The notes under the pieces are model-generated. The model was not told where the DNA came from. It worked only from the letters and a program-made list of their open reading frames with translations, and searched no databases. From sequence record PZ402301.1: a stretch of 64,000 nucleotides of DNA; one strand, 5' to 3'. Shown in pieces: positions 50,067-52,898 of the stretch (position 1 is its first letter; every line of letters begins with the position of its first letter). Source of the stretch: a phage. The translations under genes were made by a program, and so were the position numbers.

Positions 50067-50537
50067 TTAATCATGTTTCCACACCCCATCGGTATTTGAC
50101 CAAAGTCGCTGATTATCTGATCCTCGCCACAGCTTTTTGGTCGGAAGATTTTTCTCATACTTCCCATCAATAATAACATCAACATATTTAAGCATTTCTA
50201 GTTGTTTAATATCTTCAAACTTATATCCTGTCCACAACCAAATGCTTTTATTGGGATAAAGATTTTTTACTGTTTGAACAATGCAATGAACAACATCTCG
50301 GTTATCAGGATAGAGAGGGTCTCCTCCAGTTATAGTTAATCCTTCTATATAATCATTATTCAAACATTCAATTAATTGTTCTAGTGTTTCACCAGTGAAT
50401 GGAACACCATTTCTAGCATTCCATGTTGATTTATTATAACACCCTTCGCATTTATGCAAACAACCTGTAACGAAAAGAACGACCCTGCATCCAGGGCCAT
50501 TCACAAAATCGCAGGGATAAAATCTATCGTAATTCAT
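50067..50537 (-). CDS. nrdG: anaerobic ribonucleotide reductase activase NrdG (radical SAM)
   Basis: 156 aa with CxxxCxxC cluster motif (CLHKCEGC). Confidence 0.9.
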   Translation of the reverse strand: MNYDRFYPCDFVNGPGCRVVLFVTGCLHKCEGCYNKSTWNARNGVPFTGETLEQLIECLNNDYIEGLTITGGDPLYPDNRDVVHCIVQTVKNLYPNKSIWLWTGYKFEDIKQLEMLKYVDVIIDGKYEKNLPTKKLWRGSDNQRLWSNTDGVWKHD

Positions 50538-52428
50538 TGGTGTTTAACCCTATGCATGATTTCTTTATTTTTGCCAAGATTAAATCCGCGCTCGTTCGGA
50601 TTTCCCAAATAACCGCAAGTTCTTCTTATGGTGTTCATCTTTTTAGGATCAGTTTCTCCACAAATAGAACAAACAAATCCGTTTTCAGTAGGAGTCATTT
50701 CATGGGTACTTCCGCATGTAAAACATTTATCTACTGGCATATTAACACCAAAATAATCTAAATGTTGTGCAGCATAATCCCATACAGCCTCAAGACCTTT
50801 TAGGTTATTTTTCATATCAGGAAGTTCAACATAAGAAATGTGACCACCTGTCGCAATGAAATGATACGGAGCTTCGCGAGAAATCTTTTCAAACGGAGTA
50901 ATATTTTCTTCTACTGAAACGTGGAAACTGTTAGTATACCAGCCTTTATCGGTAACATCTTTTACACTTCCATATTTTTCGGTATCAAGTTTACAGAAGC
51001 GATAGCACAGGTTTTCAGCAGGAGTAGAATATAAGCTAAAAGCAAAACCAGTTCTTTCAGTCCATTGTTTAAGATGAATATTCATTTTAGTTAAAATTTC
51101 TTGTCCAATATCACGACCGACAAGAATATTCAATTCGTGAATACCAATGTATCCTAGGGACACTGAACTTCTACCGTTTTTAAATAACTCAATTATATCG
51201 TCATCAGGTTTAAGACGAACCCCGAATGCACCTTCTTGATAAAGAATAGGAGCAACAGTAGCTTTAACCCCTTTTAAGGAACTAATTCTACACATCAAAG
51301 CTTCAAAACATAAATCCATTCGCTCATTGAACAATTCAGTAAATTTCTGTTCATTGAACTGTGTTCCAATATAAGAATCTAACGCAATACGAGGAAGATT
51401 CAGTGTTACAACACCAAGATTATTACGTCCATCAAGAATTTCATTACCAGTCGAATCTTTCCATACGCCCAAGAAACTACGACAACCCATTGGAGAAACA
51501 GGAATAGATGAACCGGTGATAGCTTTATTGTTCTTAGCCGAAATGATGTCAGGATACATTCTTTTACTTGCACACTCTAGAGCAAGCTGCTTAATATCAT
51601 AGTTCGGATCGTCTTTATAAAGATTAACACCTTCTTCAACGAACATAACAAGTTTAGGGAAAATAGGAGTTATCCCGTCACGACCAAGGCCTTTAATACG
51701 ATTTTTCAGAATTGCTTTCTGAATCATTCGTTCAGTCCAGTCAGTTCCCATGCCAAATGTAATTGTTACAAAAGGCGTTTGTCCGTTTGAACTAAAGAGA
51801 GTATTTATTCAGTCCAGTCAGTTCCCATGCCAAATGTAATTGTTACAAAAGGCGTTTGTCCGTTTGAACTAAAGAGAGTATTTAGTTCATATTCATAAGC
51901 TTGGAATGCATCGTATACGTCTTTTTCTGTTTTAGATTGGGCATAATTCAACGCATCAGCGATTTGCCATTTTTCTGCATCCTCAATATGTTTTGCATAG
52001 GTGCGTTTAACATAAGGAGAAAGGACTTTATCTACATTCGCAAAAGTCGTTCCACCATATTGATGGGAAGCAACCTGTGCAGTAATTTGTGCCATAATTG
52101 CAGTAGCAACACCGATTGATTTAGGAGTTTCAATCTGTGCATTACCGAGCTTAAATCCGTTCTCAAGCATTCCTTTTAAATCTACTAAACAGCAATTAGT
52201 AAATGGAAGAGCAGGGGAATAATCAATATCATGGAAATGAATAATTCCGCTTTCATGCGCTTTCATAATAAAAGACGGGACCATATTTTTGGCAATGTGT
52301 TTAGACACAATACCAGCCATAAGGTCCCGTTGAGTTGGAAAAACACGAGAATCTTTATTAGCATTCTCGTTTAAAAGGTCTTTATTAGTTTTATGAATCA
52401 ATCCTTCAATTTCTTTTTCAATTGTCAT
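50534..52428 (-). pseudogene. nrdD: anaerobic ribonucleotide reductase nrdD, split by a frameshifting tandem duplication
   Basis: Two collinear ORFs (207 aa and 405 aa): the first ends ...FGMGTDWTE and the second begins MGTDWTERMIQ; the C-terminal part carries the glycyl-radical motif (RRTCGYLG) and a Cys4 zinc ribbon. Confidence 0.7.
51731..51884. repeat. perfect 77-bp tandem direct duplication inside nrdD
   Basis: ttcagtccagtcagttcccatgccaaatgtaattgttacaaaaggcgtttgtccgtttgaactaaagagagtattta occurs twice in tandem; 77 is not a multiple of 3, and the junction creates an in-frame TAA. Confidence 0.8.
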
Positions 52429-52898
52429 TTTAAACTCTTTCTAAGCTGCTTCTTAAATGAAGCTATTAATTGTGTTTTAGTGTCAGATTCATTATATTCA
52501 AATCCTCTTTGAAGCATCTCAGCCATCATTTCCTCTTTTCCTAAACGAGAAAATTCCTTTGATTTATCTCCAACGAAGTTAGGGTGAATATTATTTTGGG
52601 TGTAATCGGATTTTAAATAAGTAAGTAAATTTTCTAGCCATTCAAGATAATCAACACCTTGTCCCTTTAAGCCAGAACGATTGAATTTATGCTTCATTTG
52701 ACCTTCTGCAGCATTACAGAGATTACATAGCAACCCACGTACCTTTCCTGCTTTTGGTCCATTTAATTCATGGTCATGGTCAAGGTGATTAGCTTGAACA
52801 TCAGGATTTAGTTCTCGTTGGCAAATTAAGCATTTACCGTTTTGTGCATCATAAAATTTCTGTTTTTCTTCTTTGTATAATTTGCCAGTCAATAACAT
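52425..52898 (-). CDS. 49: endonuclease VII (Holliday junction resolvase) gp49
   Basis: 157 aa with zinc-binding Cys cluster (CLICQRE...CNLCN) and HxDH region, matching T4 gp49 length. Confidence 0.85.
   Translation of the reverse strand: MLLTGKLYKEEKQKFYDAQNGKCLICQRELNPDVQANHLDHDHELNGPKAGKVRGLLCNLCNAAEGQMKHKFNRSGLKGQGVDYLEWLENLLTYLKSDYTQNNIHPNFVGDKSKEFSRLGKEEMMAEMLQRGFEYNESDTKTQLIASFKKQLRKSLK

Follow-up and report, generated by a model that had tools for sequence, protein, structure and literature searches.

A perfect 77-bp tandem duplication that splits nrdD in a T4-like phage record is most likely an untrimmed assembly overlap

Has the T4-like phage of sequence record PZ402301.1 lost its anaerobic ribonucleotide reductase gene, or does the record contain a join that the phage genome does not? 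The window analyzed here, a stretch of 64,000 nucleotides, is a segment of a Tequatrovirus (T4-like) genome. On its minus strand, gene 49 (endonuclease VII; 52898-52425, that is, 52425..52898) lies directly upstream of nrdD (52428-50534), followed by the activase gene nrdG (50537-50067, that is, 50067..50537), which carries Pfam Fer4_12 and Radical_SAM domains and overlaps the nrdD stop by 4 nt (50534-50537). As written, nrdD is not a single uninterrupted frame, and a TAA at 51807-51805 splits it into pieces of 207 and 405 aa. A previous sequence-only reading of this DNA attributed the split to a perfect 77-bp duplication and offered two interpretations: the phage could truly have lost anaerobic dNTP synthesis, or the duplication could be an artefact of assembly. 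The evidence given below indicates that the duplication is most likely not a real biological feature. We consider it highly probable that it is an overlap between contig ends that was left untrimmed from a genome assembler, and that the phage itself carries one intact 605-aa nrdD.

The duplication has the form that the sequence-only reading described. Positions 51731-51807 and 51808-51884 of the plus strand are two 77-bp copies, 100% identical and arranged head-to-tail within nrdD. Base i equals base i+77 over a run of exactly 77 positions, so that junction microhomology is 0 nt. An exact tandem repeat of 77 nt cannot be a product of chance, and the unit is the sole tandem repeat detected by TRF in the 64-kb window (minimum score 60). 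Copy A (51808..51884, minus strand; coding nt 545-621) comes first in the mRNA and is read in frame as (L)NTLFSSNGQTPFVTITFGMGTDWTE. On the coding strand it ends in ...ACT GAA, and copy B (51731..51807, minus strand) opens with the in-frame TAA at 51807-51805, such that the letters across the junction are ...GACTGGACTGAA followed by TAAATACTCTC... in copy B. Copy B also holds the ATG (51751-51749) of the downstream ORF. The two fragments and the restart at the duplicated Met were likewise borne out. The N-terminal ORF (52428-51805, minus strand; 207 aa plus TAA) ends in MGTDWTE and covers positions 1-170 of the Pfam NRDD profile, and the C-terminal ORF (51751-50534, minus strand; 405 aa from M201) starts with the same MGTDWTE and covers NRDD profile positions 172-562 as well as Gly_radical.

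Deletion of one copy yielded an ORF of 1818 nt encoding 605 aa plus a stop codon, in agreement with the earlier expectation of a protein of about 605 aa with a glycyl-radical motif. The restored protein aligned colinearly with T4 NrdD (PDB 1H78), residues 1-605 to 1-605, including the glycyl-radical motif RRTCGYLG, which aligned to T4 G580. With its NRDD domain, a glycyl-radical motif at the C terminus, and an NrdG activase encoded by the neighboring gene, the product is recognizable as the NrdD of a class III ribonucleotide reductase. Few substitutions separate it from the class III anaerobic ribonucleotide reductase of T4 (PDB 1H78, NP_049690), and the gene occupies the same place between gene 49 and nrdG. 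Unlike its T4 counterpart, the window nrdD has neither the I-TevII group I intron nor mobC downstream, and it has the 77-bp duplication with its premature TAA. In T4, mobC encodes a free-standing HNH endonuclease and lies in the nrdD-nrdG gap (NC_000866 42906-43538); the gene is absent between nrdD and nrdG of the window.

The sequence-only reading had proposed a comparison with nrdD of T-even phages. We searched for the nrdD locus by megablast, which matched 1009 phage records, and took lengths from the 40 matches listed. In these 40 relatives the locus measured either 1818 nt (equal to 1895 minus 77) or, where the intron is present, 2863 nt. The best matches in the phage collection were approximately 97% identical across 16 kb, rising to 98.5% within nrdD; no record was an exact match. 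A 46-nt probe spanning the junction between the copies had 0 megablast matches in 50,697 phage records, and the copy A-copy B junction was likewise missing when IMG/VR, GTDB genomes, and JGI metagenomes were scanned for exact occurrences. In a collection of 15 billion proteins, exact look-ups found neither fragment (207 aa and 405 aa) and neither form, L182 or V182, of the restored 605-aa protein. Three residues distinguish the restored NrdD from that of its best match, GEP001 (V182L, T201M, and R354C); C354 is also the residue found in T4.

The first of these substitutions arises from a private base that directly adjoins the duplication. At position 51885 the plus strand reads G, corresponding to C at coding nt 544 on the minus strand, which changes GTA (Val182) to CTA (Leu). 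Coding nt 544 is G in every aligned relative that covers the position. No perfect match to a 45-aa segment containing L182 was found (0 of 2350 records), and the 544 C allele was not found in IMG/VR, JGI metagenomes, or GTDB genomes. With six or more relatives compared at each position, private positions in nrdD numbered 3 of 1818 nt, including 544, and the probability that a private base would adjoin the duplication by chance is approximately 0.3%. It follows that there is a causal link between the private base at 544 and the boundary of the duplication.

How a genome assembler could produce both features follows from the way in which circular graphs are written out. By default, SPAdes works through a k series of 21, 33, 55, and 77, of which 77 is the largest for 150-nt reads. 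T4-like phages package DNA by the headful, and their genomes are circularly permuted. The repeat length observed here, 77 nt, is one of these k values, the copies are identical with no microhomology beyond k, and removing one copy gives the sequence form of the relatives (1818 nt, 605 aa; colinear with T4 and GEP001). For circularly permuted phages, identical 77-bp contig ends have been reported from SPAdes (PMC9409062). The duplicated unit is also a plausible graph vertex, being a k-mer that flanks a variable site, if the reads were polymorphic at 544, as we infer. In the mechanism that we propose, the circularly permuted genome would give rise to a loop edge in the de Bruijn graph, the first and last k bases of which would be one k-mer vertex (k = 77). 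Such an edge needs a vertex as its anchor, and the k-mers that served as branch points, on either side of a position varying between reads, are the obvious candidates. The loop would be anchored at the branch-vertex 77-mer beside coding nt 544, where the reads would carry both the ancestral G and the derived C. The 77-base overlap would then be left untrimmed on circularisation, on re-orientation, or on reading across the record ends, and the k-mer would thus appear twice in tandem inside nrdD.

We modeled this process with a toy de Bruijn graph (k = 77) of the single-copy window carrying either G or C at coding 544. Just two 77-mers in the toy graph were branching: coding 545-621, which is the duplicated unit, and coding 467-543. 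When the loop contig was anchored at the 545-621 vertex, left untrimmed, and then re-rotated, it equaled the window at all 64000 bases. One mechanism, an untrimmed overlap, explains the length of the repeat, its perfection, the zero microhomology, and the adjacency of the SNP. The assembler would presumably have been SPAdes, and the rotation would have been carried out with the overlap still in place.

The window resembles the terminal k-mer overlap described for SPAdes (PMC9409062) in that the repeat is exactly k (77), the copies are identical, microhomology is zero, and the phage is of a circularly permuted headful type; in both, trimming one copy restores the genes across the join. It differs in that the window copies are tandem and internal rather than at two ends, which calls for an extra step of re-orientation or circular read-through without trimming. 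Comparison with the closest 16-kb relative revealed no further large indel, which points to an isolated join error and not to a generally poor assembly; the latter was rejected on this ground and because the window contains no other tandem repeat. Two other T4-like records, ON528739.1 (ESh29) and PQ516281.1 (vB_EQ1), start and end inside nrdD, at approximately coding nt 819 and 1106. Their nrdD genes are broken across the record ends and are annotated as 'similar to' only or are not annotated. The ends of ESh29 and vB_EQ1 inside nrdD showed no terminal overlap, a result that favors neither side, and the artefact was not directly observed in this phage group.

A real recent duplication, whatever its origin, is unlikely. 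The part of the sequence-only reading that concerned the split itself holds for the sequence as written. Between its two interpretations, the artefact is favored by the k length, the lack of microhomology, the adjacent SNP, and the relatives that lack the junction; a real loss of anaerobic dNTP synthesis is correspondingly improbable. The best of the biological alternatives, which we nonetheless regard as rather doubtful, is that a 77-bp tandem duplication arose very recently in the phage stock and that the resulting frameshift in nrdD abolished the class III ribonucleotide reductase, a loss tolerated under aerobic conditions. The given sequence encodes exactly such a split. An event of this kind is favored by two points of T4 genetics: nrdD is dispensable when the phage is grown aerobically in the laboratory, and T-even phages do undergo tandem duplication. 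An error-prone mutational event could also yield the private nonsynonymous change at the boundary. However, an origin in the stock leaves the exact match between repeat length and assembler k to coincidence, and the junction occurs in no other genome across the phage records, IMG/VR, GTDB, and JGI metagenomes.

The junction itself also speaks against mutation in the stock. Slipped-strand duplication in particular was rejected, since the endpoints share no direct repeat in register (0 nt of microhomology). In the sequence we read TGAAC at coding 540-544 and again at 618-622, a spacing of 78 nt and thus one base out of register. This pair constitutes a near-microhomology, partly created by the private C at 544, on which a mutational event could have relied; however, slippage on TGAA(C) repeats would give a duplication of 78 nt, which is in frame. 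A mutational model has to combine three elements, namely the duplication, the change of one base, and a length that matches by coincidence, whereas a single de Bruijn model covers both the length and the SNP adjacency.

The position of the duplication within nrdD raises a different possibility. Alignment with T4 and pSe_SNUABM_01 placed the site homologous to the insertion point of the T4 nrdD group I intron (I-TevII) at 51890..51891 (minus strand), between coding nt 538 and 539. Removal of the 1033-nt intron from T4 nrdD at this point leaves an uninterrupted 605-aa frame, and the site is shared by pSe_SNUABM_01. Only 6 nt separate the intron insertion site from the start of the duplication, which lies downstream of it. 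If contig breaks fell at random inside nrdD, approximately 0.8% of them would come within 7 nt of the insertion site. The artefact does not explain this coincidence, which counts against an untrimmed overlap and hints at a biological cause.

One such cause would be a repair scar: a nuclease break at the intron-less nrdD homing site, misrepaired to give a real duplication together with the flanking G-to-C change. The nuclease could have been I-TevII from a co-infecting intron-bearing phage, or a different homing nuclease supplied by a co-infecting T-even phage; alternatively, the duplication could have come from fill-in and blunt ligation of staggered nicks. Such a scar would be a naturally occurring case in which attack by a homing endonuclease knocked out the target gene rather than converting it. 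We regard this origin as possible but a poor fit, and very improbable overall. The start of the duplication 6 nt 3' of the insertion site is in its favor, and the flanking private SNP is compatible with error-prone repair. Fill-in of staggered breaks generates tandem duplications without microhomology, which would explain the absence of any at this junction. I-TevII reportedly cuts 13-15 nt downstream of the insertion site, a position (+13/+15) that we take to fall inside copy A. However, the junction lies at +6/+7 and not at +13/+15, and we rejected the I-TevII cleavage site as the duplication endpoint for this reason. The exact length of 77 would remain a coincidence, and no precedent was found among the 1009 related nrdD loci. 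Cleavage is also doubtful because the segment from coding 537 to 557 of the homing site carries 8 differences from the T4 I-TevII target, mostly synonymous, within an exon that is otherwise almost identical. This segment of the window (51870-51895; coding nt 534-559) represents an intron-less allele, shared by this phage and its close relatives, that differs from the T4 exon junction. Judged from its sequence, the intron-less nrdD may be a homing-site variant resistant to I-TevII.

Insertion of a mobile element does not account for the split. Alignment with T4 and pSe_SNUABM_01 showed no inserted intron or endonuclease gene between the halves of nrdD, and a split by a group I intron or homing endonuclease was rejected because the extra 77 nt is the gene's own sequence. 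The window shares with the naturally split T4-like genes (T4 nrdD, with its I-TevII intron, and Aeromonas phage Aeh1 nrdA, with mobE) a ribonucleotide reductase gene present as two ORFs; unlike those, its ORFs have no inserted element, ribozyme, or endonuclease gene between them.

It is hardly credible that the split gene is real and functional, whether as a two-piece NrdD, by -1 frameshifting, or by a 77-nt ribosomal bypass of the gene 60 type from GAA to GAA. Phage Aeh1 nrdA is a split gene and T4 gene 60 is decoded by ribosome bypass, and here the codon immediately before the stop occurs again 77 nt downstream, the 405-aa ORF begins at a Met, and the RNA of the junction region is predicted to fold around the UAA. 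All three modes of expression nevertheless fit the sequence poorly: the restart ATG lies 54 nt past the stop, and nothing resembling a Shine-Dalgarno sequence occurs in the 20 nt upstream of it (GTAACAATTACATTTGGC-ATG); the TAA is not preceded by a slippery heptamer of the form X XXY YYZ; and the first GAA of copy B (GG-GAA-CT) is an unproductive landing codon, leading out of frame to a TGA after 7 codons. The arrangement of GAA-UAA with a GAA 77 nt downstream is a trivial consequence of the duplication itself, and the Met that opens the second ORF is present in phages with intact nrdD. The predicted fold, formed by the minus-strand RNA of window 51700-51920, is a long but imperfect hairpin whose apical loop contains the UAA stop (MFE, -44 kcal/mol; z = -2.7 relative to shuffled sequences). 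It is a by-product of duplicating a partly self-complementary segment, because the 3' end of the unit (UGGACUGAA) can pair with its own 5' part (UUUAGUUCA).

If the duplication is an untrimmed overlap, 77 bases should be removed from the record and nrdD annotated as one intact 605-aa gene, and no claim of lost anaerobic dNTP synthesis should rest on it. The pattern would also be of diagnostic use, in that a perfect tandem repeat of assembler-k length beside a private variant would identify a loop-contig join that was left untrimmed. Should the duplication instead be real, it would be an ordinary recent knockout of a dispensable gene, of modest interest solely for its position beside an intron homing site. 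A perfect duplication in two copies carries no evolutionary history.

The Met at which the 405-aa ORF restarts has a distribution of its own. Codon 201 (at 51749-51751 and 51826-51828) specifies Thr in T4 and nearly all relatives. Within the phage collection, Met201 is shared with WL-3, ESh27, and pEB20 and with no other record, and all three have an intact 1818-nt nrdD. M201 was therefore rejected as an adaptation to the split and is a natural, rare allele. Two of these three records belong to Mosigvirus, which suggests that the M201 allele has moved between lineages by recombination.
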